A stretch of 64,000 nucleotides of DNA, taken from positions 6,384-70,383 of IMG/VR virus record IMGVR_UViG_3300037313_000577; one strand, written 5' to 3'. Below the pieces are notes generated by a model. The model was not told where the DNA came from. It did no database searches and was given only the letters and a program-made list of their open reading frames with translations. The translations under genes were made by a program, and so were the position numbers. This document shows positions 1,258 to 64,000 of the stretch, piece by piece. The DNA is from a virus (Duplodnaviria; Caudoviricetes). The stretch's first letter is position 1; each line of letters opens with the position of its first letter.

Positions 1258-2676
1258 ATGCGACCGTTAGCAGGATCGCCACGGCGCTTACACGCGTTTG
1301 AAGTTGCCGACGATACAGCACTGCATGCACTGCCTGTGAGTCCCGACGACATTGGACGCGCCGCGTACGTCACAAGCACCGGCATCATGCACCTCTTAGC
1401 GGCTGTGAATCCGGCAGACTGGCACGCGATCATGGGTGTGCCAGGTCCGCAAGGAGCAACAGGCGAGCCGGGTCCGCAAGGTCCTGCTGGTCCCAAAGGC
1501 GACACTGGCGATACCGGCGCGACTGGTGCAACAGGACCCAAAGGTGACACTGGCGATACAGGTCCGCAAGGGCCACAGGGACTCACAGGTGCGACAGGTC
1601 CGAAAGGCGATACCGGAGCTACGGGACCGCAAGGTCCCATCGGGCTCACAGGCGCGACCGGACCAAAGGGTGATACGGGTGATACGGGTGCGACAGGACC
1701 GCAAGGGCCAGCAGGACCGATTGTGAATCTTGGCGGCTTGCTTGACGTTGCGCTTGGCACACTTGCAGACGGCGACATGCTGTATCGCGATGCAACGGCG
1801 AATACGTGGAAGAACATGCCGGGGCGCGGCAAAGCAAGCGGAGTCGCACCATTAGACACAAATCTGGATCTCGTTGCGCCACACTGGATCGGAGTCGGCG
1901 CTGCTCCATCGTATCCGCTCGATCTTGTTGGCAGTGTATACATTCAACGCATTAAATCTGCAACGCAGAGTGACAGCGCACTCTTGCGGTTGGAAACGGC
2001 GGGTATTGCAGGTGGATCGGGTGGTGCAGGTGGCATTGACATCTTTGACGGCACGGTCCGCAGTGGACGACTCACAGCCGCGCTTGCGAATGCCAGCGGT
2101 GGACGCTATTTCGGTTTCGTGTGCGAAGTAGATCGCGATGCGAATAATCTGCCGTTCATCGTGTTCACACGCAGCGCCGCTGGTGGCAATACACGCGCGT
2201 TCACGGTGTGGCCCGATCCACAGCAAGGCTACGTCACCGTTGGCAATCTCGCGACAGCACCCGGCGCAAATCTGCATGTCTACCAGGCGGAAACAGGTGT
2301 AACGTCGTCCGTCTTGTCGATGCTCCGACTCGAACACCAATCGAACGTGGCGACGGCAAGCGGATTCGGATCGTCGCTTGGGTTTGCCGGACGATCATCC
2401 ACGACGGCAGGACGCGACATGGCCGATATTACGGCTGTGTGGGCGACGGCGACGGATGCCACGCGCAAAGGACGACTCTCACTGAATGTGTGGGATACAG
2501 CAGTGCGTGAGGCGTTGCGACTCGAATCGTCGGGCAGTGCGCCGATGATCGGATTGTACGGAGTCACAGCCGTCGCACGACAAACCGTCGCAGCGGCGGC
2601 AACCGATCTGACAAGCGCGATCACGCTCGTCAACGATCTGCGCTCCAAGCTGATCACGCTTGGCGCATTCCAATAG
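1258..2676 (+). CDS. collagen-repeat tail/head fibre protein
   Basis: Long Gly-X-Y tract ([13 protein letters not shown] repeats). C-terminus [18 protein letters not shown] resembles fibre termini. Confidence 0.8.
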
Positions 2677-2685
2677 GAGACAAAT

Positions 2686-2946
2686 ATGAGTGCGAGACAA
2701 CAGGATTTCATATCGCAAGTTCGGACGGAAGCAAGCGCAATTCTGGACGCGGTGTCGCGTCTGCACGCACTGCGCGCGGAGTGGGATGCGCTGGCGTACG
2801 GCGCAACACTGACGACAGATGATTTCGTCGGCGAAAATGCCGATCTGGATGTGGCGGAGATCACAGGTGTGTTTACGACCGTCGAAGCGATTGACGCACT
2901 TATGAGTGCGGGGCACGCAACCAATTTGTACAAAGTGTATCGGTGA
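2686..2946 (+). CDS. hypothetical protein
   Basis: AGGAG RBS, 86 aa, tightly packed in the operon. Confidence 0.6.
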   Translation: MSARQQDFISQVRTEASAILDAVSRLHALRAEWDALAYGATLTTDDFVGENADLDVAEITGVFTTVEAIDALMSAGHATNLYKVYR

Positions 2947-2949
2947 CGC

Positions 2950-3129
2950 ATGGAAGATCGCATCAAACAGCGCATTGTCGAGCTACGCCAATTCAAGATC
3001 AATTTAGAGCGCGAACTCCGCGCGACCGAAGCGGCGATTGGCGAACTGCATGCGCTCCTTGCACCGGAGCAACCACATGACACAGGGACCGAAGCACCAT
3101 CAACAGACGCGCGTTCACAGGCCGAATAA
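2950..3129 (+). CDS. small coiled-coil hypothetical protein
   Basis: MEDRIKQRIVELRQFKINLERELRATEAAIGELHALL, read manually; fills the gap between neighbours. Confidence 0.45.
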   Translation: MEDRIKQRIVELRQFKINLERELRATEAAIGELHALLAPEQPHDTGTEAPSTDARSQAE

Positions 3130-4522: not shown

Positions 4523-5545
4523 ATGGCGCTGATCTTCATGGACGGATTCGATCATTACAACACACCCGCGCAAAAAGGATGGATCGCGACTGGTGGAAAC
4601 ATGCAAGCGAGCGGCACGCGCTTTGGCAGCGGTCAGTGCTACTCACTCGGCGGCAATCAAAATATGTACCAACAATTGCCGTCAACAAGCGAGCATGCCA
4701 CGATCATCATTGGATGCGCGGTGTATCGCTCGGCCAACGTCGGCGTGCATAACGATTGGCTGTTCTACAGTGATGCGCACGCGACCACGCACGTGGTTGT
4801 TGCGATTATGCCGGATGGATCAATTGGCGCGTGGCGTGGCGGCTACAACAACGCGAACGTGCTTGGGATCTCGGCAGCGAACAATCTTGTCCCGCCGAAT
4901 GTGTGGGCGTACATCGAAATTAAAGTCACGCTCAGTGATACCGTTGGCGTCGTTGAAGTGCGCTTGAATGGCAGCGCCACGCCAGTATTGAATGTGAGCG
5001 GCGTCGATACGAAGAACGGCGGGACGAAAACAACGATTGACAGCGTGGGCATCAACAACAGTACCGGCACATCACTCTATGACGACGTGTACATCCTGAA
5101 TCCTTCTGGCAGCGTCAATACGACATTCCTGGGTGATGTGCGAGTCGAGACGATCTACCCGACCGGCGCGGGTGCATCGACCGGACTCACGCCGTCAACA
5201 GGCGCGAACTGGGCTGCTGTCGATGAAACGCCGCCGAATACGACCGATTACGTGTCGTCGGCAGGCACGAACGTCAAAGACACGTACGCGATGGGCGATC
5301 TGTCAACAGGCGCAAGCACGGTGGTGGGCATGCAGATCGGCACGTACGCGATGAAAACCGATACCGGCGTGAAACAGTATCGACAGGTCGTCCGCAGCGG
5401 CGGCACCGATTATCCCGGCACGGCACGCTCACCCGCGACGAGCTACAACTACGACTTTGCAATCTCAGAGACGAATCCGGCGACATCGGTCGCGTGGACA
5501 AAATCGACGGTGAATGCGGTCGAGATCGGTGTTGAGGTGCTGTGA
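4523..5545 (+). CDS. virion protein, beta-rich lectin-like (MALIFMDGFDHY type)
   Basis: GGAG RBS, 340 aa, S/T/G/N-rich beta-strand pattern, located in the fibre module. Confidence 0.6.
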   Translation: MALIFMDGFDHYNTPAQKGWIATGGNMQASGTRFGSGQCYSLGGNQNMYQQLPSTSEHATIIIGCAVYRSANVGVHNDWLFYSDAHATTHVVVAIMPDGSIGAWRGGYNNANVLGISAANNLVPPNVWAYIEIKVTLSDTVGVVEVRLNGSATPVLNVSGVDTKNGGTKTTIDSVGINNSTGTSLYDDVYILNPSGSVNTTFLGDVRVETIYPTGAGASTGLTPSTGANWAAVDETPPNTTDYVSSAGTNVKDTYAMGDLSTGASTVVGMQIGTYAMKTDTGVKQYRQVVRSGGTDYPGTARSPATSYNYDFAISETNPATSVAWTKSTVNAVEIGVEVL

Positions 5546-5763
5546 TGACGACGATCAATGTTTCACAGGTTGAAGCGGAAGTGATCACGGTCAGTACAAC
5601 GGCGGGTGTGCGTACGTCACAAGTGGAAGCGGAAGTGTTGACGCGCAGCACCAGTGCACAAGTGCAAGTGTCGCAGGTCTTTGCAGAAGTGTTGTGTACG
5701 TGGACGGCAGATGCACCGCTGACACCCGCAGGCGATTATCGCATGCTGCCGTGGATCACATGA
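5542..5763 (+). CDS. small virion-associated protein
   Basis: Internal repeat SQVEAEV x3. Overlaps neighbours by GTGA/ATGA. Confidence 0.5.
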   Translation: MMTTINVSQVEAEVITVSTTAGVRTSQVEAEVLTRSTSAQVQVSQVFAEVLCTWTADAPLTPAGDYRMLPWIT

Positions 5764-6140
5764 AGCTACGCGCGTGGTTTCGTATGCTGGCACAGGCGTG
5801 TGCGGAGTATGCCGGATCGCCGTACGCGTTTCTCGCAGCACTGGCTGTGATCGTCGTGTGGGCGATCACAGGGCCGTTCTTAGGATTCAGCGATACGTGG
5901 CAACTGATCATCAATACGTTCACCACACTGGTGACGTTTCTGATGACGTTTGTGATCCAGCACACGCAGAATCGTGACACCAAAGCGCTGCATTTGAAGT
6001 TGGATGAGCTGGTCCGTGCACAAGCGAATGCGCGCAACAACTTCATCGACATCGAACACCTTGACGACGAACAGCTTGCGCATCTGAAAGCGTACTTCGA
6101 TTCACAGGTGCGCACGGAAGGAGATGCTGATTATGCCTAG
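5760..6140 (+). CDS. low-affinity iron permease family (Fet4-like) membrane protein
   Basis: WAITGPFLGFSDTWQLIINTFTTLVTFLMTFVIQHTQNRDTKALHLKLDELVRA matches the family signature as recalled. Two TM segments. Confidence 0.8.
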   Translation: MKLRAWFRMLAQACAEYAGSPYAFLAALAVIVVWAITGPFLGFSDTWQLIINTFTTLVTFLMTFVIQHTQNRDTKALHLKLDELVRAQANARNNFIDIEHLDDEQLAHLKAYFDSQVRTEGDADYA

Positions 6141-6558
6141 ACGAGTCGCATGTGTATGCGCAACATGCGGTACATCTTTTACCGTTGTCCGCGCTGCGTA
6201 CGAACGTGGTGAAGGTCAATACTGTTCACGCGCGTGTTGGCGAGAGAGATTACGTACACAGCCGCTTGATCGCCTACTCGCACGAATCGATAAGCGCAAT
6301 GGTTGTTGGTATGTACGTGGTGTCGCGCCGTACGAATATGCGACACTCAAAATTAACGGCGCAAAGGTAAAAGCGCATCGATTTATGTACGAACAGCACA
6401 ACGGTCCTGTACCGGATGGTTTGGTTGTCATGCACACATGCGATCATAAATCATGTGTCAATCCCGATCATTTATGCGTTGGTACACAAGCTGACAACGT
6501 ACACGATGCTATGCGTAAGGGAATCTTTCAGGGATCGGGGATAAGGAGTGGGATATGA
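6133..6558 (+). CDS. HNH homing endonuclease
   Basis: AHRFMYE...VMHTCDHKSCVNPDHLCVGTQADNVHD, with an N-terminal CxxC...YCSRAC zinc motif. Confidence 0.85.
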   Translation: MPRRVACVCATCGTSFTVVRAAYERGEGQYCSRACWRERLRTQPLDRLLARIDKRNGCWYVRGVAPYEYATLKINGAKVKAHRFMYEQHNGPVPDGLVVMHTCDHKSCVNPDHLCVGTQADNVHDAMRKGIFQGSGIRSGI

Positions 6559-7619
6559 GTGATTTCTTTTGGGATGGCACGACGAACTTTAGAACAGTAC
6601 AAGATTTCGCGTTGTGGCTGAACAGACAACCAAAACCGGCGTGGAATCCGAAAGGAGTCACGTTTCATCATACATGGAAACCAGTACAAAAAGACTGGCG
6701 TGGACTCTTATCAATGCAGAGTCTCGAACGTACGTATCGCGGCTATCAGGGATGGAACGCAGGACCTCACGTGTTTCTGTGTGCGGGTGCGCCGAATCCG
6801 GCCAACGACGGCATCTGGATCGGCACACCGATCTCGCACGCGGGCATCCATGCCGGGAAGTGCAACAGCGATCATTTTGGCATGGAGATCGTCGGCAACT
6901 ACGATTTTTCCGGTTGGTCGCAAGCGACAAGCGATCTGGTGTACGGCACGATCATCACGCTCCTACGCTGGTTGAATGTTCGCGTGATGAATGATGCAGA
7001 TACGACGCATCTAGCCGGACATCGCGAATGTCTCAACAACAAATCGTGCCCCGGATGGGCGATTGATTGCAAGGTTGTACGCAGAAAGGTGATGCAACTC
7101 ATGACGACTCCGAACGTAACTCCCACACCTACGCCTGTGAATCCGATGCGCGATGTACAAGTGATCGGCGTGACACCATCGATCTCGTTCGAGCAATTTA
7201 TGCGCGTGCTGTCGCGTCACCCATGCGGACTCAATCCAACCGAGATGAAACGCTGTTATGACATGTGCGTGTGGCTGGATGTCGATCCAACATTCATGCT
7301 TGCATTATGGAATAACGAAGCGCCGCCATGGGGCCAGTCACCCTTGCAACTGAAATCGAATTGCCCGATCAACGCGCGCGCGGTTGCAGGTGAGACGCGC
7401 CATACGACGCCGGGTCCTGACGGTAAGCCATTCCTGCGCTTTGAAACGCAGCAGCTTGGCTTCATGTATTCGGTCGTGCATATGAAGGAGCAATACGGCG
7501 CGGAAGGTCAACTCACCGTGCGCGAGATCGCACAAAAATTCACCGGCAGCACAGCGGAGCAAGCAATCGCGTACGGCGATAAATTGATGAACTTTATGGC
7601 CGAATTGCGCAAAGTCTGA
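6555..7619 (+). CDS. endolysin: N-acetylmuramoyl-L-alanine amidase (Amidase_2) plus C-terminal glucosaminidase/lysozyme-like domain
   Basis: HHTW, GPH, HAG, GMEIVG, GHRE and KSCPG amidase motifs. A Pro/Thr linker leads to PSISFEQF...VDPTFMLALWNNE. Confidence 0.85.
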   Translation: MSDFFWDGTTNFRTVQDFALWLNRQPKPAWNPKGVTFHHTWKPVQKDWRGLLSMQSLERTYRGYQGWNAGPHVFLCAGAPNPANDGIWIGTPISHAGIHAGKCNSDHFGMEIVGNYDFSGWSQATSDLVYGTIITLLRWLNVRVMNDADTTHLAGHRECLNNKSCPGWAIDCKVVRRKVMQLMTTPNVTPTPTPVNPMRDVQVIGVTPSISFEQFMRVLSRHPCGLNPTEMKRCYDMCVWLDVDPTFMLALWNNEAPPWGQSPLQLKSNCPINARAVAGETRHTTPGPDGKPFLRFETQQLGFMYSVVHMKEQYGAEGQLTVREIAQKFTGSTAEQAIAYGDKLMNFMAELRKV

Positions 7620-7626: not shown

Positions 7627-8112
7627 GTGTTTGCACGTGGGCACCACACGACGCCGATCACAGGGAGTGCGGGACCTGTGAATCCCGCTGGTCCGGGCGA
7701 CTTGCCCCACACGCGTGTGCGCTATCTGATCTACGCGCCAGATCTGGTGGAGGTGATCGCGTTCACAATTGCGATTGTGTATGGGATCTGGTATCTGCTG
7801 CCGTGGGATCTGTTTCGTGTCAGCAGCACGTACAACGATATGCGCGCGCTGCTGAGCGAAGATGCGTGGGGCTGGATCTTTATCATCGTCGGTGTTGTGC
7901 AATGGTACGGTTGGTTTCGTAGCTGGCGTAACTATCGACGCAGAGCGGCACTGTATGGCGTCGTGTTCTGGTCGATTATCTGGATTCTGCTCATCCACGG
8001 CAACTGGCGCGGCGCGGGGACGGTGATCTTTCCCTTTTCGTTCATCTACTATAATCTCGTCGCGTTTTTGCGGTTGGGAAATCCACGCATAGGACACTAT
8101 GTTAACCAATGA
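7627..8112 (+). CDS. multi-pass membrane protein (lysis cassette)
   Basis: About 4 hydrophobic segments, immediately after the endolysin. Start uncertain. Confidence 0.6.
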   Translation: MFARGHHTTPITGSAGPVNPAGPGDLPHTRVRYLIYAPDLVEVIAFTIAIVYGIWYLLPWDLFRVSSTYNDMRALLSEDAWGWIFIIVGVVQWYGWFRSWRNYRRRAALYGVVFWSIIWILLIHGNWRGAGTVIFPFSFIYYNLVAFLRLGNPRIGHYVNQ

Positions 8113-9924: not shown

Positions 9925-10590
9925 ATGGCGCGTTCCCCTACCAAGCTCCATCCACAGGTGCGTGATGAGATCATTCAACTCGCACACAGTGGCGCAACGA
10001 TTGCGATGATCGCGAACGAACTGCCGATCTCGTACGAAAGTGTCAGGCGCGTTTTAGCTGAGGAAGGTATCACCACCGCGCGTGAAACCGCGCTGGCACG
10101 CGAAACTGGCAACGACGACGGCATACGCATTCGCGCGGTTCCGGTTGCACGCGCGAAAGAGATCGCTCGCGATTACACTGCCGGAATGCCGATCCCCGAT
10201 TTACTTGAGAAGCATGGTATCTCTGCGCCGACAATGTATAAAATCTTGCGCGTGTTCGAGATCCCCAATCGCACAGAGTTGGCGGCACAGGCGCGTGTCA
10301 GCGCATTCAACGACGCCATTGGTATGTACTACAACGGCGCGAAGCTGTGGGAGATCACGCGCGCGACCGGCATATCGTCGGCATCGCTGATCGCAGAGCT
10401 TCACAAGCGCGGCTTTGAGTTGCGTGGACGCAAGCAACATCGCCCACAATACACGCTGGCGCACACCATCGATCAGATCAAGCTCGACCTTGACGACGAA
10501 CAGATTCAACTCCGTCTGGATGCGATCATCCGCGACGAATTACAAAACAACGCACACGCGGAGGCTGTGATCCATGGAGACGACGCATAA
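9925..10590 (+). CDS. multi-HTH DNA-binding protein (transcription regulator candidate)
   Basis: Three HTH-like segments (GATIAMIANELPISYESVRRVL; GMPIPDLLEKHGISAPTMYKIL; GAKLWEITRATGISSASL). AGGAG RBS. Confidence 0.75.
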   Translation: MARSPTKLHPQVRDEIIQLAHSGATIAMIANELPISYESVRRVLAEEGITTARETALARETGNDDGIRIRAVPVARAKEIARDYTAGMPIPDLLEKHGISAPTMYKILRVFEIPNRTELAAQARVSAFNDAIGMYYNGAKLWEITRATGISSASLIAELHKRGFELRGRKQHRPQYTLAHTIDQIKLDLDDEQIQLRLDAIIRDELQNNAHAEAVIHGDDA

Positions 10591-14788: not shown

Positions 14789-15061
14789 ATGAAATTGTTG
14801 CTGTTGGTATCATCGACAACACACGCGCGTGGCGTCATGGTCGTGCATGACGATGCAGACGAGTCCGCACTGTTGGCACGGCATGACGTACGAGCGACGA
14901 TTCCAGCAGCAATCTTGTACGCGCGGCTCTCGCTTCCGATTCGCGATAGCGATGCGCGCATGCTCGTACGTGCACTCGGAGCGGGTGAGTTATATATTCC
15001 GGCGACGGATTCACAGGGGAACTATCATGCGCCTAGCGATTACGATCCGACTGATGCGTGA
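14789..15061 (+). CDS. hypothetical protein
   Basis: Fills the operon. Start at MKLLLL. Confidence 0.45.
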   Translation: MKLLLLVSSTTHARGVMVVHDDADESALLARHDVRATIPAAILYARLSLPIRDSDARMLVRALGAGELYIPATDSQGNYHAPSDYDPTDA

Positions 15062-15760: not shown

Positions 15761-15805
15761 AGGCGCGTGCCGCACACACGCAGCCTGTGAATCGATGAGG
15801 GGCAT

Positions 15806-16612: not shown

Positions 16613-16814
16613 TCGCGCGTGCGAGTCTGAGTCATTATGACTCAGACTCTCTGCGCACACAGTACGCAAGGATCGCCGGATTATCGGTGATTATAACTCG
16701 TGAGAATGCTTCTTCTCAATAGTAATGTTGTGTACGCGTACCTGAGCCACAAACACACACGCCTGTGAATCGGTCACAGCACCGATTCACAGGCGGTCAA
16801 GGAGTACACACGCC

Positions 16815-17015: not shown

Positions 17016-17074
17016 TCGCTGCTGGCCTGTGAATCGTGCACTCGTTCGATTCACAACCTTCTTGGAGCACATGC

Positions 17075-19350: not shown

Positions 19351-20646
19351 ATGACGATCAGGATACCGCTTACGCAAGGTTATCACGCACTCATAGACGA
19401 TGAGGACGAAGATCTTGTACGTCCGTACAAATGGCACATTCATGCTGGAAGCGCACAGCACATCTATGCAACGAGTGCAGTAGCAGGTAAGCGTATATGG
19501 ATGCACAGGTTGATCATGCGCACACCTGAGCATCTTGTAGTAGATCATATTTCAGGCGATACGCTTGATAATCGAAAAGCAAATCTACGAAACGTCACAC
19601 AAGCGATTAACTGCATGAACGCGCCGATGCGTCCACTTGGAATTACAGGGTTTCGCGGCGTGCAATATCGTGGGGACCGTGACAGATTTATTGTTGTTGC
19701 ACGCGATGCTGACGGTCGGCAACATAGATACGGATCTTTCAAAACAGCGGAAGAAGCTGCACGTCGATACGACGAAGTAGTACGTCGATTACATGGTCCG
19801 CTTGCACAAACAAACTTCAAGGATCACACGATGCTCGACATTCCGTGTAATACCGTATTCCATGCAGATGCTCTCACAGTTCTGCGTAAGATGCAGGGGA
19901 ATAGTGTTTCACTGATCTATGCCGATCCACCATGGAACACCGGACACAATCAGCGCATGATACGCACTGTGAATCACGGCGAATTCGTGAGCGAATTTGA
20001 ATACGCGGATGTACACATTAACTTTCGCTCATGGCTCATGGAGATTATTACAGAAGCACGGCGCGTCTTGACGCACATCGGATCGATCTATCTACATCTC
20101 GATTATCACGAAGTCCACTATATTAAGGTCGCTATGGACGCACTTTTTGGTGAGGAGTCGTTCATCAACGAGCTAATTTGGCACTGGGATTTTGGCGCAC
20201 GTGCTAAACGATACTGGCCGCGTAAGCACTCAACAATCTTATGGTACGTCAAAGATCCACGCAATTACATATTTAATTACGAAGATTTAGATCGTATGCC
20301 GTACATGACTCCTGAGCTTGTCGGCCCGGAGAAAACGGAAAGGGGCAAGACACCCACCGATGTGTGGTGGAATAGCATCGTCGGCACAAACAGCCGTGAG
20401 CGTACGGGCTACGCGTCACAGAAGCCACTACCGATTGTCGAGCGCATCATCCGCGCATCATCGCATCCCGGCGATCTGGTGATGGACATGTTTGCTGGAT
20501 CGGGAACAACTGGTGAGGCCGCATATAAGCATGGAAGGAGATTTGCGTTAGCCGATACAAATCCGCAAGCGATCAGTGTTATGCGTCAACGTTTCACACG
20601 CGTCGGCATTCCAGACGACGCGATAGATTGGGTACGGTATGAATGA
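19351..20646 (+). CDS. HNH-AP2 homing endonuclease fused in frame to a beta-class amino DNA methyltransferase
   Basis: MHRLIM...VDHISGDTLDNRKANLR and an AP2 domain, with no stop before MLDIP... (ATG 19831). Then LIYADPPW and VMDMFAGSGTT. Confidence 0.85.
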   Translation: MTIRIPLTQGYHALIDDEDEDLVRPYKWHIHAGSAQHIYATSAVAGKRIWMHRLIMRTPEHLVVDHISGDTLDNRKANLRNVTQAINCMNAPMRPLGITGFRGVQYRGDRDRFIVVARDADGRQHRYGSFKTAEEAARRYDEVVRRLHGPLAQTNFKDHTMLDIPCNTVFHADALTVLRKMQGNSVSLIYADPPWNTGHNQRMIRTVNHGEFVSEFEYADVHINFRSWLMEIITEARRVLTHIGSIYLHLDYHEVHYIKVAMDALFGEESFINELIWHWDFGARAKRYWPRKHSTILWYVKDPRNYIFNYEDLDRMPYMTPELVGPEKTERGKTPTDVWWNSIVGTNSRERTGYASQKPLPIVERIIRASSHPGDLVMDMFAGSGTTGEAAYKHGRRFALADTNPQAISVMRQRFTRVGIPDDAIDWVRYE

Positions 20647-39338: not shown

Positions 39339-39425
39339 GTGTGTGTGTACCTCCCTTTAAACGCCGAAAAGCGCATGCGATATACATGCGCTTTGGCGAT
39401 TCACAGGTGCGTGTGTGCGTACGTG

Positions 39426-41081: not shown

Positions 41082-41303
41082 TTAATCGAGATATTCTAAA
41101 CAATCGTCGCATGCCATATACGGATCGTCGCTTAAGTCGCTTGCGAAGATCGCGCGGATCGGATCGCCATGCCGATCACAAGTGAACGGATCTTGGAGTT
41201 GCGTTTCTGTGAATCGCTTGCGTGCACATTCTGGACAATGATGTGCCGCTTCGTACGTGTAGCCGATCACAGCGGTCGCGTGCAGACGAAATTGTGTGAG
41301 CAT
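41082..41303 (-). CDS. small Cys-rich (2x CxxC) protein
   Basis: AGGAG RBS, CPEC...CDDC. Confidence 0.6.
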   Translation of the reverse strand: MLTQFRLHATAVIGYTYEAAHHCPECARKRFTETQLQDPFTCDRHGDPIRAIFASDLSDDPYMACDDCLEYLD

Positions 41304-42562: not shown

Positions 42563-42648
42563 GTTCCTACTCCATGTATGTATGGCTTTAAACGCCTAAC
42601 GCGCATGGCGATGTACCATGCGCGTAGCCGATTCACAGTGCGTGCGTG

Positions 42649-43149: not shown

Positions 43150-43185
43150 TGTGTGTACTCCTGGTAAACGTGGACGCGATTCACA

Positions 43186-43206
43186 GTGTGTGTGTGTGTG
43201 TGTGTG
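43186..43206. repeat. (TG)n microsatellite
   Basis: About 10 TG units flanked by GATTCACA...TGTGAATC inverted arms. Confidence 0.85.
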
Positions 43207-45377: not shown

Positions 45378-45929
45378 CTAGCCGATGGACTCTAGGACAG
45401 CATCGCGCCGCTCTTGTTCTGCCTGCACATTCTCTGCTGAGGGCGTGGATTCAGCAGCAGCAGCATCAGAGTCTTTCTTCCCGCGTGACTTCTTCTCTGC
45501 GACATCACAACCATGCTCTTGCAGCAGTGCAAGAACAGTTTCAACTTTGGATTCAGGAATCCACAAGTTGTAGGCTTGCATGTCCTTATGCTTGCCGTGC
45601 GATCCAGTCTCACCAGATTCAACCCGCGCCTTATAGTCTGCGATATGTTCTGGCTTGACGACGTTAAGCGTGATCGCAAAATCCGGCATCTCTACTGTGT
45701 CGTATTTCAGAATGTCATTACTGACCAGATACCGTACACGCGCTTCGCCAACACCTAACAATTCCGCGACCTGCTTAAGGTTAGCAATGCGGATCGCATC
45801 CTTCCGATCTTTCTCCGGCGTGGCATTCTCTGGCGTGTTGTTCGTGGACTCGTCCATGTTGGGATTCTCCTGTTGCGTGATGTTCTCCGGCGTACCCTTG
45901 TTCTTACCCTTACCGCGTGTACCTGCCAT
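45378..45929 (-). CDS. putative DNA-binding protein, first gene of the leftward array
   Basis: GGGGAA RBS. IANLKQVAELLGVGEARVRYLV HTH-like segment with basic/acidic tails. Confidence 0.65.
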   Translation of the reverse strand: MAGTRGKGKNKGTPENITQQENPNMDESTNNTPENATPEKDRKDAIRIANLKQVAELLGVGEARVRYLVSNDILKYDTVEMPDFAITLNVVKPEHIADYKARVESGETGSHGKHKDMQAYNLWIPESKVETVLALLQEHGCDVAEKKSRGKKDSDAAAAESTPSAENVQAEQERRDAVLESIG

Positions 45930-47965
45930 GATCGTATTCCCCCATGTGTGCGCTAGATGCATGCCTTATACATGCATCCTACAGTACACAAACATGCCAT
46001 GTGTGCGTATTCAATCACGCGCGCATGTTTGTGTACTCTAGGATACATACATATGCGAATGGTGGAATGGAGATCGTGATCACAGTGTGCTAAGAAGAAG
46101 ATCCATTGTGTCTCATGGCAGAGTGTGCATACACGTCATGTCTACCCTGCCATGGGACTCTGCTAGTGTTTTGCGTGCATTCTCACTAGGCTAACTATCT
46201 ACCGTGCACGATGCTTGCACGTGGACGGTATAAGCGCATACGTACAAGTAAGCATAGCGTACACGTTCATAACTCGTGTATGGATCGCTAGCGTACGGTT
46301 TACGTATGGCGATTGTATGTAGTTGGTAAGGTACGCACTATGGACGCACACACACATGTGTGTATGCGTCCACACTAGAATGCCGTTCTATGGCTATGTA
46401 CCGTTAGAGATGTGTACCGATCTTGCTTAGATGCAAGCATCATGGACTATGCAGAGTATGCATAGGATACGATTACTCCATACATAAAGCGCGCGTATGT
46501 GTGTCGTCAATGAGCCGATCTTGCATGCGTTTTTATACTCTAAAAACGCAGTGCTATTCAGCCATGTCTACATGTTGCGTCCGGTACGTATGGGGACAAT
46601 TGCTACTGCGATATATGGCGACCATAGCTAGCAGTAGATGCAACATGGATGAGCGGCACGTGTACATCGACGTTGGGACATCGCTGTACATACGACATCA
46701 CCGTATGCAGAGGGAGTCTAACGAACAAGCGAGCATTCTAGGCCATTGAACGTACATGATGCTGACATGTGCACGTGATGCGTGGTGTAGTCGATAGTGT
46801 GTGCGTGATGCGTGCGACATGCGGGGATGCATGGCGCATGCAGGGAGTCAGCATGTGGCGTGTATGTAGTCAATGACGTGTATTGTAAGGTGCAAGTTGT
46901 GGGCGGTATTTCCGCCGCAAGAGAACAGTAGCACGGATCGCGGATATTGTTAATAGCAACTAAATGAGGGTACTCTCCTAAGATGAAGGCAGGATGCGGG
47001 GATGGTGGTAGATTATGGGGATACGGTAGTAGGATATGCGTAGATGAGTAGCAGAAAGTACAATTGTGTGTGCGATTGTTGACCAATAGTCCTACTAGAA
47101 GGGTGTTTTAAATTAGGTATAGTACTGTGTGCGTAACAGGACTAGAGTACAGTTTTGCATGTGGTAGTTTGGTAAGGTATTAATGACCTTTACTACGTCT
47201 TGCAAAGCGTTTGCAAAACACTTGCCCATAGCTTGCACACACTTAGGGTCGCAATACACTTTACACTTTCAGCCATGAACGTCGAATCCCGTACAAACAT
47301 CTCTGTATGTCCATCCACATCCACACGTAGCAAAACACACACAATGCACGTGCAATGCCGCACAATGCCACACAGCGCGTTTCAGAGGCATCTCCGTGTA
47401 TGCAGACATGGACGCATGGAACATGGACGCATGGCCTAGTAGAGCGTAGATGCACGTCCGTAGATCTTCCTCAGTGTGTGCACGTCCATAACTCTCTTGC
47501 ATGCATGGTGCATCGAATGCGTACACACGACCATGACCATGCGACCATGCGACCATGCGCGACGTTGCACACGTGGCAACGCCGGCAGTGCATCATTGCG
47601 CGGACGCATGCGCCGGCAGTGCAGCAACGCACGAAGATCGCGCATGCAGGCCCGGCAGTAAAAACGCGACCCGGAAAACGCGTGCGATCCTCTTGCACAT
47701 CCTCTCACAAACAAAAATGTACAAAGGAAATTTTATACTTTTCACTGAATGTTTTACAGCGTAAAAAAGCCTCGTCATCGACTTGACATCAAGGTATCGC
47801 ATTTTTCACACATCATCTGTCAGCCCTTTTCTCCCCCAACTCTGAGTCTCACTTGTCAACTTACTAAAAGTAACCGACCATTCCCCATCAAATTTTAAGC
47901 TTAAGAACAATAACAATAAAATACGAATTATCGGCACTCCCATTTAGGGCATCCCAATGCCTCAA

Positions 47966-48176: not shown

Positions 48177-48534
48177 ACTTTTTTAGGGCTTCCTAATGCC
48201 TTAAACCGAAAAACACCCATAGTTACAAGTTATTCGCCTTAAACAATCTTTCCACAGCACCCTTTTTTCGCGCAACGACCCTCAAACGCGCTGTAAACTG
48301 TTTCCCTGACACCCACGCTCACACGCCCCCGCCCCCACGCAGCTCGACACCACGCACCCCCACGCTCGACCAGACCGACCCGCCCCGTTCTTTTGCACCC
48401 CCACGCCCCGCCGCACGTACCATGCACACAAAAAATAAAAAATCCCCATCCCACTCCACACCTGTGAATCGGATCACGGCCAGCTACACGTGCACGCGAT
48501 TCTTTCAATTTCCTGTCAGACTCCCCACTGAGCA

Positions 48535-48623: not shown

Positions 48624-49904
48624 ATGGACACAGACGGACGGACAGAAGGGACGCAGCACGTGACATCAGCGCATGATCAAGCACCCACGCCAGCGCAAGA
48701 TTTCACGTACGTGCGCATCTCCAAGGATGAGTACGCGCGCCTGCGTGACGCTGGAATTGAAGTGGCATCGCTCCAACAGCAGATCGCAGCGCTTCAAGCG
48801 CAGATCACATACTTGCAGACGCTCGCATCTCCCAACCATCCGGCCCGTGCACACACACCTACGCCGACCGCCACGCCAGCACTCGATGGTGTAGAACTCG
48901 ATCCTGACATGCGTGCACTCGTAGATCGTCACACACACGACAGCGCGCACACCGGACCTGTGAATCCGCCAACACGCACGCCCACACGCGACATGACACG
49001 CCTGGTCCTGCATGATGACGACTCGACACGCGTCAACACAGCTATCGATCCAAACGACGATACACACGCCTACACGCACACAACACTCACAGAACAAAAC
49101 TTACCCATCCCATCATTCACATCCGTCCCAACTGACAAACACGATCCGCGCAACACACGCGACCTGCCTACACCCGTACCGATGTTCAAGAGCACGGTCC
49201 GCTATGACACCATTTTCGCAGCCGTGCTTGACGAGCTACAATTAGCGCTGTATGGAACCGATTACGCGCCGCCGCGTCTGCTCACGCCGCAGAACGTGCA
49301 AACGATTATGACCTGTGTCCAGGGCGGCATGACGCGGCATCGCGCGTGTGCCATCGTCGGCATCAGCCAGCACGTCTATCGCACCTGGCGGAGTCGCGCA
49401 GAGGATGAAGAAGAACCGTACGCGACCTTCTTCATGCTCTTTGACATGGCCGAAGCACGCACGGAAGCGCAACTGATTGCTTCATGGAGCGCACACGCGC
49501 GCATCTCATGGCAAGCTGCCCAGGCCCTTGCACGTGCACGCTTCCCCGACTGGAACGACGCCGCCGCAACGAAGGAGATCAACAAGCAAGAGATCGCACG
49601 CATGACGGTGGATGAGTTGCGCTCGCAGATCGGAGCCGAACGCGCCAAACAGATCGAAGCCGAAGTTCGCAGCGCGCGTGCACTCCCGGCCCCGCCAGCA
49701 GCAGACGCGTCCACCAACACCACCAATCCCATCGATCAGATCGCCTATCGTCAAACTGGCATGCAAGCGCGCATACCAGACGACGGCGACAATGACGACG
49801 GCAATGACGCCAACCCTGTGAATCGGCCCACGTACGATGAAATCCATCTCGCACGCACATACACACACGTGGACGATCCAGACGACACCGTAGCCAGCGA
49901 CTAA
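48624..49904 (+). CDS. terminase small subunit-like protein with long low-complexity N-terminal extension
   Basis: GGMTRHRACAIVGISQHVYRTW HTH plus F...FDMAEARTEA...W..AA..LAR.R.P..W. First gene of the packaging operon. Confidence 0.65.
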   Translation: MDTDGRTEGTQHVTSAHDQAPTPAQDFTYVRISKDEYARLRDAGIEVASLQQQIAALQAQITYLQTLASPNHPARAHTPTPTATPALDGVELDPDMRALVDRHTHDSAHTGPVNPPTRTPTRDMTRLVLHDDDSTRVNTAIDPNDDTHAYTHTTLTEQNLPIPSFTSVPTDKHDPRNTRDLPTPVPMFKSTVRYDTIFAAVLDELQLALYGTDYAPPRLLTPQNVQTIMTCVQGGMTRHRACAIVGISQHVYRTWRSRAEDEEEPYATFFMLFDMAEARTEAQLIASWSAHARISWQAAQALARARFPDWNDAAATKEINKQEIARMTVDELRSQIGAERAKQIEAEVRSARALPAPPAADASTNTTNPIDQIAYRQTGMQARIPDDGDNDDGNDANPVNRPTYDEIHLARTYTHVDDPDDTVASD

Positions 49905-50631: not shown

Positions 50632-51128
50632 ACAACAATACACCGCTCGACACTGTGATCACGCAGACGCTCGCAGCAGAACGACACGCACGCACGAACG
50701 CGAACGCACCCACGAACGCGGACACGAACGCGAACGCAAACCAGAGCATCGTCGCCTTGCAATCCATCGTGCACTTTCGTATTCCCGGCCTCCGCAGTGG
50801 ACGCGAAGTGACGGTGATCTTACGCATGCGTGTGCACGTGCCGATCCCGCCTGACGACGCCGATACGATTGAACCACTCGAATTCGAGATCACGTATCCG
50901 CGCGCGTGGTGGGCACGCATGATCCAAAAGATCAAGGATAACGAGCGCATCACGCTCCTGCCGTGCGACACGGACACAATCAGCGTCGTCCTACTCGATC
51001 CGCCGACCGGCGCGCGCTTGTTCGCGGACATCCCGCAGTGTCCCGGCTGGACTTCCAACAACGACGCCACAATCCACATCGATTACGACGGCACGCCATA
51101 TATACGCGCGGAGATCAGCACGCGATGA
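50616..51128 (+). CDS. hypothetical protein
   Basis: 170 aa with a TNANAP/TNADTN repeat. Confidence 0.5.
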   Translation: MVTQVNNNTPLDTVITQTLAAERHARTNANAPTNADTNANANQSIVALQSIVHFRIPGLRSGREVTVILRMRVHVPIPPDDADTIEPLEFEITYPRAWWARMIQKIKDNERITLLPCDTDTISVVLLDPPTGARLFADIPQCPGWTSNNDATIHIDYDGTPYIRAEISTR

Positions 51129-51808
51129 ACACACACGCACTCGACGCACCACAGATCCCGCCGACCGTTGCGATCACACCGATCCGTGCTGTGATCGCCA
51201 AACTGGTCGATCTCGATCCGCTCACACCCCACACCATCGTGAACGTTTGCGCTGGCAACGGCGTGTGGGGACGCATCATCGCACAGGCACTTCCGTCCGC
51301 ACGCGTGATCGGTTTCGATCACACGCGCTATGCGCCGCATTACTACTACGACTACGAGCACATGTACGTCTGCAACATCTTGAATGCCGCGCGCGAACAT
51401 GCGCACGCTCATCCCTACGCGAACACGCACATGGCAACGAGCGGACCAGCCGCAGCCTGTGATCTGGTCGTCGGCACGCCGCCACGCGTCGATCTGAGCG
51501 CGTACGCCGCCGCATGCATGCATCTGTGGCCGCGCGCGACGTGCGTCCTTGTGGGCGATTCACAGCCTGACATGGGCGCAAATGCGATGTGGTACATCGA
51601 CTCATCGGACAGCGCCGCACACATCTGGACGGATGACGCGCGCTATCACACGCAGACGATCCTACGCAGCCCGTACGATCCGCGCGAAGCGTTTGAGCGC
51701 CGACTCCGCGCGCTCGACCGCAGGCACGGACCTGTGAATCCGGCCAGCACGCCGCTCCGCGCTGAATCGTACGCAGATCTTGTCAACGATGCCGACACGT
51801 ACCACTAG
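51125..51808 (+). CDS. degenerate methyltransferase-fold protein
   Basis: IVNVCAGNGVWG resembles motif I of 17075..17725. NPPF is replaced by GTPPR. Confidence 0.5.
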   Translation: MNTHALDAPQIPPTVAITPIRAVIAKLVDLDPLTPHTIVNVCAGNGVWGRIIAQALPSARVIGFDHTRYAPHYYYDYEHMYVCNILNAAREHAHAHPYANTHMATSGPAAACDLVVGTPPRVDLSAYAAACMHLWPRATCVLVGDSQPDMGANAMWYIDSSDSAAHIWTDDARYHTQTILRSPYDPREAFERRLRALDRRHGPVNPASTPLRAESYADLVNDADTYH

Positions 51809-58817: not shown

Positions 58818-59282
58818 ATGCCTGCTGCAACAAGCTACACAGAAGAAACACTTGCTGCGTACATGCGTACGAGTGTGTTACGTGAAACAGCGGACACGCT
58901 CGCGTGGACGGTCGTCACCGTACCAGGAGATTACGACACGATCATCCACGATGTCGAGCGCTATCTTGGCGTGGACGACATTGCGTCCGTCGAGAGCGCG
59001 CGCATGCGCTATGTGGAGCTTGTTGCAGCCTATTTCGCGTGGAAAGCTGCGGTCGCCGCGTTCGTCACCGCATATGATATTGCAGGTGGCGGCGCAACCG
59101 GCAACGCGCTTGCACGCACCATGGCACGCGGACAGATGTTCGCGCATGCACAACAAGCGTTAGCGGATGCAGCAGACGAGCTAGAACAATACGAGCGAAC
59201 ACTCGTCGGTGTCGATCAGATGGTGGAAGCGGGCACGCGTTCGGCGGCGATCCGTGTACGCGCGGTGTGGAGGCCACGCTAG
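58818..59282 (+). CDS. head-tail adaptor candidate
   Basis: Helical 154-aa protein, assigned by position. Confidence 0.5.
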   Translation: MPAATSYTEETLAAYMRTSVLRETADTLAWTVVTVPGDYDTIIHDVERYLGVDDIASVESARMRYVELVAAYFAWKAAVAAFVTAYDIAGGGATGNALARTMARGQMFAHAQQALADAADELEQYERTLVGVDQMVEAGTRSAAIRVRAVWRPR

Positions 59283-59689
59283 TGCTGCCGATCTCTCCGC
59301 ACGAAGCCGGTCGCGTACAGAACGACGAAGCCGAATTGATTGTGAATCTGTTTCGCGCGTACGGTGTCGGCGGCAGTGCGTGGACGCTCACGCGGCGCGA
59401 TGCAGGGAGTGGCATGTCGGCAGGCACGATCACTACACGCGCGCTGACAGATCTGTACGTGGCGCTCAGACAGGACGTGGGGCTGCCTGTGAATCCGGTC
59501 GATACGCCGATTCCATCCGACGCATGGAGCGCGGTCTCACGCACGGAAGCAGATCTGTTGGTGTATGACGTACTCACATCCATCGATGATCCATCACTCG
59601 CGTTCACAGTGCAAAGTGTTTCGCGCAACAGCGTCGTGATCACACTGGCGCAACTCTCGAAAAATGATCGTGTGGGAATGGCGTACTGA
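59267..59689 (+). CDS. head-tail joining candidate
   Basis: Assigned by position; beta-rich. Confidence 0.45.
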   Translation: MEATLVLPISPHEAGRVQNDEAELIVNLFRAYGVGGSAWTLTRRDAGSGMSAGTITTRALTDLYVALRQDVGLPVNPVDTPIPSDAWSAVSRTEADLLVYDVLTSIDDPSLAFTVQSVSRNSVVITLAQLSKNDRVGMAY

Positions 59690-61197: not shown

Positions 61198-61218
61198 GCG
61201 CATCTGTGATCGGGGCGC

Positions 61219-61248: not shown

Positions 61249-61275
61249 GCTTAGTGAACGCACAACGGAGCATGT

Positions 61276-61818
61276 ATGACTGACGCACAGATCAAGAATC
61301 CCCCCGCCACTATCACGGCCACACCCGCGAGCGCGTGGCGACGACAGGCCGTCGAAGGTGAATGGTATCGTCTCCCAGGAAGCGGCAACGTCGTGTGTCT
61401 TGCACGTCCGGGCCTGCAAGCGATGATTGGCGTGGCAGGCAAGGTGCCCAATCCGATCTCACGCAACGTCCTCAATTTTCTCGCGGCAACGTCGCGCCTG
61501 ATCGACCGTGCCAACGCGAGCGAAGATGAGCGCGTGCAGGCGTGGATCGAAGATCAGCGCACGAACATCGAGCTTGCCAAGCTGTGTTTCGTGCATCCGC
61601 GCATCGTGGACGATCCACAGGGCGACGATCAGATCGCGGGTGAATGGCTCAGCGATTACGATCTTTCGTGGGTTGTGTATTCGTTCTTGGAGGGTAGCGC
61701 GGAACGCGTGAGCGCGTTTCGTCTCGCTGCAAGCACTGGAAACGATGGATCTGATGGCACAGCGCTACGGGAAGCTGCCAACGGATCTGCTGAGCCAGCA
61801 GGAGCGGACGAGTCTTAG
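61276..61818 (+). CDS. tail assembly chaperone (gpG-like)
   Basis: Between the major tail and tape measure genes; GGAG RBS. Confidence 0.7.
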   Translation: MTDAQIKNPPATITATPASAWRRQAVEGEWYRLPGSGNVVCLARPGLQAMIGVAGKVPNPISRNVLNFLAATSRLIDRANASEDERVQAWIEDQRTNIELAKLCFVHPRIVDDPQGDDQIAGEWLSDYDLSWVVYSFLEGSAERVSAFRLAASTGNDGSDGTALREAANGSAEPAGADES

Positions 61819-62140
61819 CGCGTACGAGCGCTGGTGTTGGAACGAAGCCGCGATGATCGCGGGTCTGCAAGCGGAACAGCGCGCGTACGCACGCATGCGT
61901 GCACAGATGGATGCAGACACGGATGATCCGGCCGTCGCGCCATCACCGCACGCAGACACGCAGCCACGCACGCAATCCGCGTACAAACCGGCACAAACAG
62001 GCACGGCCAGTGTGTATTCGACCGATCAGGGGCTCGTGATCACCGGATCGGTGCCGTTTATTGGTGGCGGCAGACGCAAGCGCACGCAAGCATCCACCGT
62101 CGAATTCGATCACAAGGGGCGCGCACGCTATGGCAACTGA
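61745..62140 (+). CDS. tail assembly chaperone extension (gpT-like), overlapping in the +1 frame
   Basis: Overlaps gpG by 74 nt. Frame is open from 61712. Confidence 0.6.
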   Translation: MDLMAQRYGKLPTDLLSQQERTSLSAYERWCWNEAAMIAGLQAEQRAYARMRAQMDADTDDPAVAPSPHADTQPRTQSAYKPAQTGTASVYSTDQGLVITGSVPFIGGGRRKRTQASTVEFDHKGRARYGN

Positions 62141-64000
62141 AATTGGCAATGCAGTAGCACGATTCCTCTTTGACATTAGCGACTTCGCAGAGAAGGCGCG
62201 TATGGCAGAGGAAACGCTGACTCGTCTGCAAGAATTGACAGCAAAGCCACTGCGTGCGCGCATCTCTGCATCTGTGCCAAGCGGACAGACGCGCCAGAAT
62301 GCACAGCAGCAGGTTCAAGCGGTCGTGCAACCGGAGCGGCAAGCGACTGAGGCTGTGCAGCAGACGGTGCAACGTCGCGCGCGTATCTATCAAGATGGCG
62401 TTGCCGTCGAGCGGCGCACGAATCAAGAGCTTAAGCAGACCGTAGACGAACGCATCCAGATCTACGAAAAAGAACAGGCCGCCGCACGCAATCAGGATCA
62501 AGCAGCACAGCGCCGCCGCACGCGATCACAACAGCAACAACCGCAAGCAGGCAACGCACAGCAGCAAGTTGCGCAGAGCAACGCGACTCCGCAAGCGACA
62601 AGTGCGCCTGCGGCGGGCACTGTGAATCCCGGCACGGTCGCGACCGTCACTGCCGCACTCGAAAAAGAGAGCGCGGCACTGACTGATTCCGAAGATCGTA
62701 CGATTCGCCTTGCGCTGGCGTCGAACGATCTCAAAACAGCTATCGACGCGATTGGCCGTGCACTTGCAAAGAATACACTCACCGAATCACAGCGTACCGA
62801 TCTCCTGGTGCAACAGACGCAGCTTTCCACGCGCTTCACACAAGAGCAAGTCACGCTCGAATTACGACTCGCGCGCAACGCCGCAGCCGCAAATGAATTT
62901 GCCGTTGCACTAGAGAACGTCGCCAACGCGGAAAAAGCAGCAGGCAACAGCACTGAATTGATGTCGCAAGTCGAAGCGACACACATTCAAGTGATGAAGC
63001 AGATGCAATCCATCACGAATCAAGTGGCGGATTCCGAAGTGCAACGCCTGACGATCCAAAAGCGACTCACAGATGCGCAAGCGGTAGTTCAGAAACAACT
63101 CGCAAATCTCCCGATTGCACCGGAGAACGCACCACGTCGCGCGGCACTCCAAGCCGACGAAGCACAGATCATCGCACTGATCGTCCAGGCCGAACAGAAA
63201 CAGATCAAATCTGAAGCCGATCTTGCGCGTGCGATGCGTGAGTACGAAAAGGCGATTGACAAACTGCGTGAAGCGCAGAAGGCGTACGTCAAAGATTCGA
63301 CTGGTTACAACATCCTTGAGCGCCAGATTACAGAGATTCAAAAGCAGGCAACACGCGAAGCGAATGCATACGCCGACGCACAGATTCGTAATGCGGCGGC
63401 AGCACGCAACTGGGCTGAAGCGGAGCGTCTGTTAGGAGCGGCAATTAAGAATGCCGTGACGCAAGGCGATCTGACGCGCGTCGAACGACTCCAAGGCACG
63501 CTGCAAAATCTCCAACGCACGCGTTTTGAACAATCGTTCCTGGGCGGCCTCACAGAAGGTCTGCGTAGTCTTATTCTGCCCCTTGGACTCGCACAAGCCG
63601 CACTGTCAACGTTGCGTTTTACGATTGATACAGTCATCGACGGACTTAAATTGTCTGCGCAATTCGACTTGAATCGCAGATCAATTGAAGCATTTTTCGG
63701 CTCTGTGAATCGTGGTGATGCGACCTTCAACGAAGCGATGGAGTTTGCCAAGCGCTATCGTATCTCGTATCAAGAGATGGGTGAGGCGATTCAAGATGCA
63801 GCACTGATCCAACGTACATCCAACGCGACGACTGAGGAAACACTGAGCGTGCTTGCACGTTTGCAACAGCGTGCGCCAAACAAAACATTCGCGGATGCCG
63901 TGCGGTCGGTTGTCGAACTGCAATCGGGCCAGATCCAATCGATTGAGCGCGTTTTCCAGATACCACAACGCTTCGCACAGCAGCTTGATCACGAGATTCA
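62130..64000 (+). CDS. tape measure protein, 3'-truncated by window edge
   Basis: ATG at 62130 (MATEIGNAVARF...) begins an Ala/Gln-rich coiled-coil frame, translated by hand for its first part. No stop-terminated ORF appears in the track, consistent with running off the end. Confidence 0.85.
   Translation, partial: MATEIGNAVARFLFDISDFAEKARMAEETLTRLQELTAKPLRARISASVPSGQTRQNAQQQVQAVVQPERQATEAVQQTVQRRARIYQDGVAVERRTNQELKQTVDERIQIYEKEQAAARNQDQAAQRRRTRSQQQQPQAGNAQQQVAQSNATPQATSAPAAGTVNPGTVATVTAALEKESAALTDSEDRTIRLALASNDLKTAIDAIGRALAKNTLTESQRTDLLVQQTQLSTRFTQEQVTLELRLARNAAAANEFAVALENVANAEKAAGNSTELMSQVEATHIQVMKQMQSITNQVADSEVQRLTIQKRLTDAQAVVQKQLANLPIAPENAPRRAALQADEAQIIALIVQAEQKQIKSEADLARAMREYEKAIDKLREAQKAYVKDSTGYNILERQITEIQKQATREANAYADAQIRNAAAARNWAEAERLLGAAIKNAVTQGDLTRVERLQGTLQNLQRTRFEQSFLGGLTEGLRSLILPLGLAQAALSTLRFTIDTVIDGLKLSAQFDLNRRSIEAFFGSVNRGDATFNEAMEFAKRYRISYQEMGEAIQDAALIQRTSNATTEETLSVLARLQQRAPNKTFADAVRSVVELQSGQIQSIERVFQIPQRFAQQLDHEI

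Follow-up and report, generated by a model that had tools for sequence, protein, structure and literature searches.

The present analysis concerns a short DNA word, the 9-mer CTGTGAATC, which is repeated throughout the genome of a virus of the Caudoviricetes recorded in IMG/VR as IMGVR_UViG_3300037313_000577. The stretch of DNA that was analysed, referred to here as the window, comprises 64,000 bases and is the final part of this 70,383-base record. An exact 18-bp repeat is common to both ends of the record (window positions 63981–64000 versus the first 18 bases of the record), and a tape-measure-like open reading frame (62130 onwards) runs off the right end and resumes in frame at the record start. 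Therefore, the genome of this phage is a closed and complete circle of approx. 70,365 bp; the CheckV estimate had been 53%.

The gene map of this circle was obtained from Pfam and PHROG scans of about 60 proteins, which is not an exhaustive set, and the gene boundaries were drawn with a simple gene caller based on codon usage, so that start positions are approximate. Transcription is organized in two arms. The rightward arm begins at 48.6 kb, crosses the junction and ends at 31.2 kb; it includes the structural genes, i.e., the small terminase TerS (48624–49904, unusually large), the large terminase TerL (51789), a probable portal, the major capsid protein (57030), the tape-measure and tail genes, and an amidase (6555). 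It also includes the genes for DNA metabolism, namely those of a protein with two helix-turn-helix (HTH) motifs (9925–10590), an SNF2 helicase, a PD-(D/E)XK nuclease, a Sak4-like annealase, an SSB, two methyltransferases, two HNH-AP2 endonucleases, an intein-bearing primase-helicase, MazG and a UDG-PolA fusion. The leftward arm (31.3–46 kb) consists of small genes of no assigned function with hairpin cassettes between them; the protein encoded at 45378–45962 gave no family match in the Pfam and PHROG scans. Likewise, among the proteins scanned we detected no integrase, no repressor and nothing else that would serve lysogeny. The search of a phage isolate collection yielded no close isolate (PolA less than 28% identical, major capsid protein without a match).

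The word CTGTGAATC is present in 33 exact copies in the window, where dinucleotide-preserving shuffles predict 0.80 (maximum 4), and in 37 exact copies in the whole genome (23 forward and 14 reverse), which corresponds to one per 1.90 kb over the circle. Markov models of order 1 to 4 predict 0.8 to 2.4 copies (1.6 with order 3 and 2.4 with order 4), and together with the shuffles these nulls ruled out an artefact of composition. Once microsatellites are set aside, CTGTGAATC is the most enriched 9-mer of the genome. A preliminary description of the window had reported 31 copies; all these positions are exact, but two further copies, at 28876 (minus strand) and 41207 (plus strand), had been overlooked. 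Alignment of the 37 copies extends the word to C(24/37)-CTGTGAATC-S(36/37)-S(31/37), so that its fuller form is C-CTGTGAATC-S. Each of the single-mismatch variants occurs only 0 to 5 times; the word is thus essentially all-or-none, and the signal is read with near-absolute sequence specificity.

The enrichment also persists when the coding constraint is taken into account. Synonymous codons were shuffled within each gene, keeping the proteins and the per-gene codon usage, and none of 1000 shuffles attained the observed values. The copies within genes number 17 in the sense orientation versus a mean of 0.52, and 9 in the antisense orientation versus 0.81, an enrichment of about 11-fold for the latter. 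Copies in intergenic DNA are enriched as well: non-coding DNA accounts for 12.7% of the genome but holds 10 of the 37 copies, a density 2.5 times that of coding DNA, in which the other 27 (73%) reside. The enrichment of antisense and of intergenic copies alike shows that the word is selected at the DNA level. Chance or a codon artefact as its source is excluded.

This selection has left a visible imprint on the proteins. The preliminary description had cautioned that several intragenic copies encode the peptides PVNP or PVNR. Such peptides are indeed encoded, but they are not the cause of the word: the motif [PAST]-V-N-[PR] is found 15 times in the proteome versus 1.6 expected, an excess of about 9-fold, because the word has been forced into coding sequence, and 16 of the 25 x-V-N-[PRHQL] sites bear it. 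In the antisense orientation, all seven Asp-Ser-Gln tripeptides of the proteome are spelled GAT TCA CAG (GATTCACAG), with a chance of 0.046 per site and a joint chance of approx. 4e-10. A codon or peptide artefact was ruled out by these peptide counts and the synonymous shuffle. Moreover, the NCT codons that the word needs are scarce in this genome (CCT represents 10% of the proline codons and GCT 8% of the alanine codons). In the DNA polymerase, both copies lie in variable stretches beside conserved blocks, where they replace residues that vary among relatives. As copies have been forced into proteins everywhere, the value of the word grows with its copy number.

The sense copies of the rightward arm that lie in the window are all on the plus strand. 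They are found in a collagen-repeat tail gene (1403–1411, within 1258–2676, encoding AVNPA), in the amidase gene (7135–7143, within 6555–7619, PVNPM), in gene 7627–8112 (7676–7684, PVNPA, with a divergent 8-mer partner of the sister word described below at 7656), in the N6-adenine methyltransferase gene (19967–19975, TVNHG), in the primase-helicase gene (21483–21491, PVNRS), in gene 24574–24978 (24743–24751, AVNPL), and in the MazG gene (25092–25100, PVNRA, with a convergent 8-mer at 25141). A further copy in the DNA polymerase gene (30022–30030) encodes AVNRG, where relatives have RKL, KKD, LQQ or DKQ. The small-terminase gene carries two copies (48958–48966, PVNPP, and 49816–49824, PVNRP); another, at 51732–51740 (PVNPA), is located 57 nt ahead of the large-terminase start, and the remaining ones are in gene 59282–59689 (59487–59495, PVNPV) and in the tape-measure-like gene (62620–62628, TVNPG, and 63703–63711, SVNRG). 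Minus-strand copies that are antisense and read Asp-Ser-Gln occur at 6099–6107 (gene 5760–6140), 15008–15016 (gene 14789–15061), 21638–21646 (primase-helicase), 27827–27835 (gene 27461–27922) and 51557–51565 (gene 51125–51808). The two copies that had been overlooked are also antisense; the one at 28876–28884 (minus) encodes GFTAA in a stretch of the DNA polymerase that varies and is flanked by conserved blocks, and the one at 41207–41215 (plus) encodes RFTET in the leftward gene 41082–41303.

The intergenic copies are preceded by CA- and ACGC-rich tracts. The one at 15785–15793 (plus) follows an CACACACGC tract, 12 nt ahead of the ATG (15806) of the Sak4-like gene, and that at 48462–48470 (plus) precedes the small-terminase gene by 153 nt. 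In the leftward arm, the copy at 43178–43186 (minus) comes right after a (CA)9 tract and 28 nt upstream of gene 42649–43149. Four other minus-strand copies, at 35077–35085, 36964–36972, 39398–39406 and 42630–42638, have a stop codon on one side and, as had been noticed before, a cassette hairpin on the other. These cassettes, of which there are about 21 between 31944 and 45378, one per small early gene, consist of a stop codon, a CA/ACGC tract, a hairpin of 8–10 bp, TTT, AGGCRTTTAAAG, a CA tract, GGAGG, TACACA and ATG. Only four of the approx. 21 carry the 9-mer, and the word was rejected as an integral part of them. An exact scan of viral contigs for the cassette pattern gave chance matches only and revealed no other phage with it.

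Some copies are paired. The two perfect inverted repeats reported previously are real and slightly longer than claimed: the palindrome at 16760–16795 unites two 9-mers (16763, plus; 16784, minus) in 15-nt arms separated by a 6-nt spacer, and that at 33513–33538, within the leftward gene 33165–33839, unites those at 33515 (minus) and 33528 (plus) in 12-nt arms with a 2-nt spacer. A third inverted pair, at 17028–17055, raises the palindromes that contain the 9-mer to three; here the plus-strand copy 17027–17035 and its imperfect inverted partner CGATTCACA (17047–17055) span 17027–17055, 39 nt upstream of the methyltransferase-like gene at 17075. When the 37 nine-mers and the 51 copies of the sister 8-mer are taken together (88 sites), eight pairs lie less than 60 bp apart, all of them inverted and none direct, and no preferred pair spacing was detected. 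CRP-like sites of the form TGTGA-N6-TCACA were considered and rejected, since none is present and no pair spacing is preferred. Over the circle, the spacing of the 9-mer is Poisson-like (coefficient of variation 0.96), that of both words combined is slightly more even than random (0.81, p = 0.03), and there is only a mild excess of copies near gene boundaries.

With respect to transcription, 27 of the 37 copies are co-oriented and 10 are opposed (binomial p = 0.008). The 24 co-oriented copies reported previously are correct for the window (24 versus 9), and the preferred strand is indeed reversed in the leftward arm, with six copies on the minus strand and two on the plus strand. The compositional expectation slightly favours the antisense orientation; hence the observed bias opposes it. 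Among intergenic copies, nine of ten are co-oriented and the remaining one is the second arm of a palindrome. The signal is therefore directional, though not strictly. Another oriented word, ACGCAAGC, was observed in 21 copies (e.g., at 4150, 10428, 18663, 32766 and 58557); its 17 intragenic copies are all sense and fall in three frames, and three of its four intergenic copies are sense as well. The ratio of sense to antisense occurrences is 67:15 for GAAGCG and 54:9 for CGAAGC. This bias probably reflects the composition of the sense strand, but ACGCAAGC is more one-sided than the 9-mer.

The orientation bias of the 9-mer could be expected if the word acted in RNA, i.e., if CCUGUGAAUCS in the phage mRNA were a target for binding or cleavage, be it by an RNA-binding protein, an RNase or a small RNA. 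The 27:10 co-orientation would agree with this, as would the intergenic copies, which are on the sense strand in nine of ten cases and often lie between a stop codon and a hairpin. Nevertheless, the antisense copies, which are enriched about 11-fold, and the use of the word in every Asp-Ser-Gln triplet allow no action on mRNA, the sister word is unoriented, and neither a complementary RNA candidate nor an Rfam match at gathering score in the window was found; an RNA-level signal is thus very unlikely. A promoter for a phage sigma factor or RNA polymerase was rejected on account of the lack of a fixed distance to gene starts (12–153 nt) and the intragenic location of most copies. A third possibility is a replication signal, where the primase-helicase of the phage would start on the lagging-strand template at Okazaki-fragment intervals. 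The 27 co-oriented copies in 70 kb, one per 2.6 kb, and the large primase-helicase encoded by this phage speak for it; however, a quarter of the copies point the opposite way, the GC skew shows no replication polarity, and known primases read sites of 3 nt. Taken together, this makes a primase signal an even more improbable explanation than one acting in RNA.

The orientation of the sites seems to hold additional information. Since the large terminase is of the P22/BPP-1 type (headful), free DNA ends are expected near terS. When the 88 sites are grouped by distance from the non-coding region beside terS (47.2 kb), with each group covering 10 to 16 kb, the ratio of plus to minus declines from group to group as 11:2, 6:3, 6:5, 10:6, 11:11 and 6:11. 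Inside the rightward arm alone, where the direction of transcription is constant, the trend has p = 0.026 (one-sided Mann-Whitney), and control 6-mers are roughly calibrated for this test. This is a hint, though not proof, that orientation follows the distance from a DNA end and not transcription alone.

As mentioned above, the 9-mer is accompanied by a sister word, CTGTGATC, which is CTGTGAATC minus one A. There are 51 exact copies of it in the genome, versus 10–16 expected from order-3 and order-4 Markov models, and 48 of these are in the window (between 2859 and 61211, on both strands), versus 3.5 expected. Its flanks follow the pattern S...S, it has no orientation bias (28 co-oriented and 23 opposed), and in the synonymous shuffle described above its copies within genes amount to 25 sense versus a mean of 2.2 and 20 antisense versus 2.7. 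The relationship of the two words becomes clear from the 120 CTGTGA hexamers of the genome, which are followed by TC in 51 cases, ATC in 37, GTC in 5, TTC in 3 and CTC in 1, with 23 in other contexts.

These spellings led us to consider a word coupled to methylation, whose reader would recognise CTGTG followed by an N6-methyladenine that can be methylated only within GATC (in the 8-mer) or GANTC/GAATC (in the 9-mer). CTGTGA with (A)TC after it is common to both words, and no other reading explains two sister spellings naturally; CTGTGA in other contexts is not enriched (the 23 copies mentioned, versus 55 hexamers expected overall). The phage also encodes a beta-class N6-adenine methyltransferase, to which M.RsrI and CcrM are the nearest relatives of solved structure, and a second methyltransferase-like protein, and both GATC (864 coding copies versus 542) and GANTC (346 versus 212) are enriched at synonymous sites. 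In contrast, the N in CTGTGANTC is not free, as the counts given above demonstrate (A 37, G 5, T 3, C 1), the two words differ in orientation bias, and no reader protein was identified. For these reasons a methylation-coupled word is regarded as improbable. An HNH-AP2 homing-endonuclease-like gene (19351–19830) lies directly upstream of, or in frame with, the N6-adenine methyltransferase gene, and a second one is at 30395–30853; the primase-helicase gene (20639–24562) contains a LAGLIDADG intein. A nucleoside 2-deoxyribosyltransferase-like gene adjoins MazG and the UDG-domain PolA (26654–27109 and 24971–26047), a neighbourhood suggestive of DNA modification or of a nucleotide metabolism that is non-standard.

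The overall composition of the DNA is also unusual. Relative to expectation, GG/CC is at 0.59, AG/CT at 0.70, CG at 1.46 and AT at 1.34, with a strong purine-pyrimidine alternation; CGCGCG is enriched 7-fold and CACACA 5-fold, and GATC is present 924 times in the window, 3.4-fold over composition. Relatives of the major capsid protein come from DNA of 64–65% GC that has approx. 9–12 GATC per kb too.

Such a composition would be compatible with a word passively copied from a host-wide one (an uptake sequence or a REP/HIP-like repeat) or arising as an artefact of codons or composition. A scan for inverted word pairs that used one genome per prokaryote species gave chance hits and REP-like hairpins in Ferruginibacter and Sediminibacterium; this REP/MITE-like family, CTGTGAATCTGTGGCAA...TTGCCACAGATTCACAG, occurs many times per genome in five Ferruginibacter metagenome-assembled genomes (MAGs) and two Sediminibacterium genomes, and its hairpins end in the same 9-mer. 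Nevertheless, the genomes of these Chitinophagaceae have 35% GC versus 54% in the phage, and the phage has strong Shine-Dalgarno sites, a feature not known as typical of Bacteroidota. No genome dense in the word was found in a sample of 711 (401 Chloroflexota, 300 Gammaproteobacteria and 10 others), the Chloroflexota having been chosen because a MAG of this phylum is the annotated source of one distant homologue of the major capsid protein; in none of them did the word exceed background, the maximum being 31 copies of the 11-mer in 4.1 Mb. Some genomes of the two large sets are unpublished, and they enter into these negative tallies only. Neither the endolysin homologues nor a protein atlas pointed to a host. 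The 9-mer also has the 27:10 orientation bias, and its enrichment survives the dinucleotide, order-4 Markov and codon-preserving nulls, which refutes the artefact part of this explanation; a passive origin is the least probable of the explanations considered here.

In the viral sequences searched, the word appears to be private to this lineage. Neither word, nor any comparably dominant one, was found in relatives with 52% identity in the major capsid protein, in 80 relatives with 40–44% identity in TerL, or in relatives with 37–46% identity in PolA. The relatives checked were those at 52% identity or below; closer ones, by the major capsid protein, exist on a 1.1-kb contig (65%) and on a 75-kb Logan contig (61%). 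When 2.9 million viral contigs were scanned for inverted word pairs, a single other phage proved truly enriched, IMGVR_UViG_3300044825_002951, with 36.8 kb, terminal repeats and seven copies that belong to a longer word, GATCTGTGAATCA. Two of its sites, in one intergenic region (4970–5360), are perfect palindromes GATCTGTGAATCA-N4-TGATTCACAGATC. This phage has only one tail-like protein in common with the one described here, and its dinucleotide signature is different; it was therefore rejected as a related carrier of the word, and its GATCTGTGAATCA sites are likely operators of its own regulator, i.e., an unrelated system. A literature search for the 9-mer returned primers and unrelated matches only, so that the 9-mer, its sister spelling and its arm-wise orientation are not described in the literature searched, although dispersed exact words are already known in phages as a kind.

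The preliminary description had proposed that the word is the asymmetric site of a phage regulator, with the products of 9925 and 45378 named as examples, or of a host recombination or translocation factor. An asymmetric, orientation-biased motif selected on the DNA is what we found. The first half of that proposal corresponds to sites for a phage-encoded monomeric DNA-binding protein with an asymmetric site of 11 bp (CCTGTGAATCG), which would have a regulatory or architectural role throughout the genome, like the stoperators of mycobacteriophage L5 or the C1 operators of P1, the candidates being the two-HTH protein (9925–10590) and the large TerS (48624–49904). A word restricted to one lineage is what would be expected from a protein and a site that co-evolve; the higher density and largely uniform orientation of the intergenic copies and the three palindromic pairs also agree with it, the two HTH motifs of the 9925 product could tolerate the one-base difference in spacing of the sister word, and the unrelated phage just described has the same 9-mer inside palindromic operator-like sites. 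On the other hand, 73% of the copies are intragenic and forced into proteins, degenerate sites are almost absent, which is unusual for operators, antisense copies are selected too, no dimer spacing is preferred, and, with no lysogeny function among the proteins scanned, a silencer of the immunity type has no obvious role. We consider this explanation doubtful, though deserving of serious attention.

The other half of the earlier proposal, a host factor of the Chi or KOPS type, agrees with the density and the exactness of the word. The profile of the word fits DNA-tracking enzymes better than classical operators. From its selection on the DNA, exactness, density, dispersion and orientation bias we infer a reader and an effect, and we tentatively suggest, as a possibility somewhat stronger than the previous one, that a helicase-nuclease tracking along DNA reads it as a Chi-type signal. 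According to this proposal, C-CTGTGAATC-S would be read on the DNA itself, in one exact copy per approx. 1.9 kb, mostly oriented away from the non-coding region near the terminase genes, and a helicase-nuclease tracking from a free end would change its behaviour on meeting the word from one side. The active strand would be spelled 5'-GATTCACAG-3' and would be met from its 3' side, in both arms, by an enzyme that had entered at ends near terS. The enzyme could be a host one of the RecBCD/AddAB type or, less likely, the SNF2 helicase and PD-(D/E)XK nuclease pair of the phage. In such a scheme each extra copy would protect the genome or promote recombination-dependent replication, and copies would be pushed into coding sequence for this reason.

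A word that is the most frequent k-mer and occurs about once per 2 kb is a property of Chi in phages, and the 37 copies in 70.4 kb agree with it. Several observations weigh against a Chi-type signal. Known Chi sites have 5–8 nt and are G-rich, whereas this word has 9–11 nt and is not G-rich; none of the 711 genomes screened is dense in it; and the one-base deletion that gives the unoriented sister word CTGTGATC is not predicted by the Chi model. In addition, Chi-rich phages would be expected to lack a recombination module of their own, and here a Sak4-like annealase, an SSB and a PD-(D/E)XK nuclease are present. Finally, the orientation bias of 73% is weaker than that of LLS (20:3) or MD8 (32:0) and is confounded with the direction of transcription.

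A more speculative variant, which we judge unlikely although less so than the purely methylation-coupled word, is that of a directional word private to the phage and read by a tracking enzyme that the phage itself encodes, for which the SNF2 helicase and the PD-(D/E)XK nuclease are candidates, or by a reader that depends on methyl-adenine. The two spellings, CTGTG-A-TC and CTGTG-A-ATC, would then represent the GATC and GANTC contexts, and the system would be a viral analogue of the self-recognition achieved by Chi and RecBCD.

Whatever its reader, the word has altered the proteins at more than 25 positions of a virus of 70 kb in which no lysogeny genes were found, which indicates that each copy pays. 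Few such phage signals are understood, the host Chi in LLS, P1 and MD8 being one of them. If the word is the Chi of the host, it would reveal which Chi sequence an uncultured host lineage uses and would link phage and host by sequence only; if it is read by the machinery of the phage, it would represent viral self-marking of a new kind. Either way, 37 identical sites offer a clean handle for a simple binding or degradation assay.

Three groups of known systems are pertinent to this word. The stoperators of cluster A mycobacteriophages, bound by gp71 in L5, are reportedly asymmetric sites present by the dozen genome-wide, with an orientation tied to transcription. Stoperators and P1 C1 operators have 13–17 bp, tolerate mismatches, are mainly intergenic, and occur in phages that are temperate and have a repressor. 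The word described here is similar to them in its many asymmetric, dispersed sites and in an orientation linked to transcription; however, its copies are exact, genes contain 27 of the 37, 10 of the 37 are antisense, and no lysogeny function was detected in the proteins scanned. The DNA uptake sequences (DUS) of Neisseria, the uptake signal sequences (USS) of Pasteurellaceae and the cyanobacterial HIP1 are words of host chromosomes without an orientation bias linked to transcription. They resemble the present one as exact 8–12-mers that occur about once per kb, enter coding sequence in preferred frames and form some inverted pairs; they differ from it in that this word has an orientation bias and no host carrying it was found in the genomes searched.

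The closest resemblance is with phages enriched in the Chi sequence of their hosts. LLS has 23 Chi sites, one per 1.86 kb, with an orientation of 20:3, P1 has 50, one per 1.90 kb, and all 32 of Pseudomonas phage MD8 are in one orientation; the octamer that occurs most often in LLS and P1 is Chi, and, as a trend, a Rec module and a RecBCD inhibitor are missing from most of the Chi-rich phages published (Zheng et al. 2025, Genome Res, PMC12315714). The phage described here differs from them in the length and base composition of its word (9–11 nt, not G-rich), in a bias of 73% that flips between transcription arms versus 87–100% in those phages, and in having its own annealase, SSB and nuclease as well as an enriched sister word one base shorter. 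Nevertheless, it shares with LLS, P1 and MD8 an exact and dominant k-mer that is present approximately once per 1.9 kb, mostly within genes and with a biased orientation, and that codon usage does not explain.

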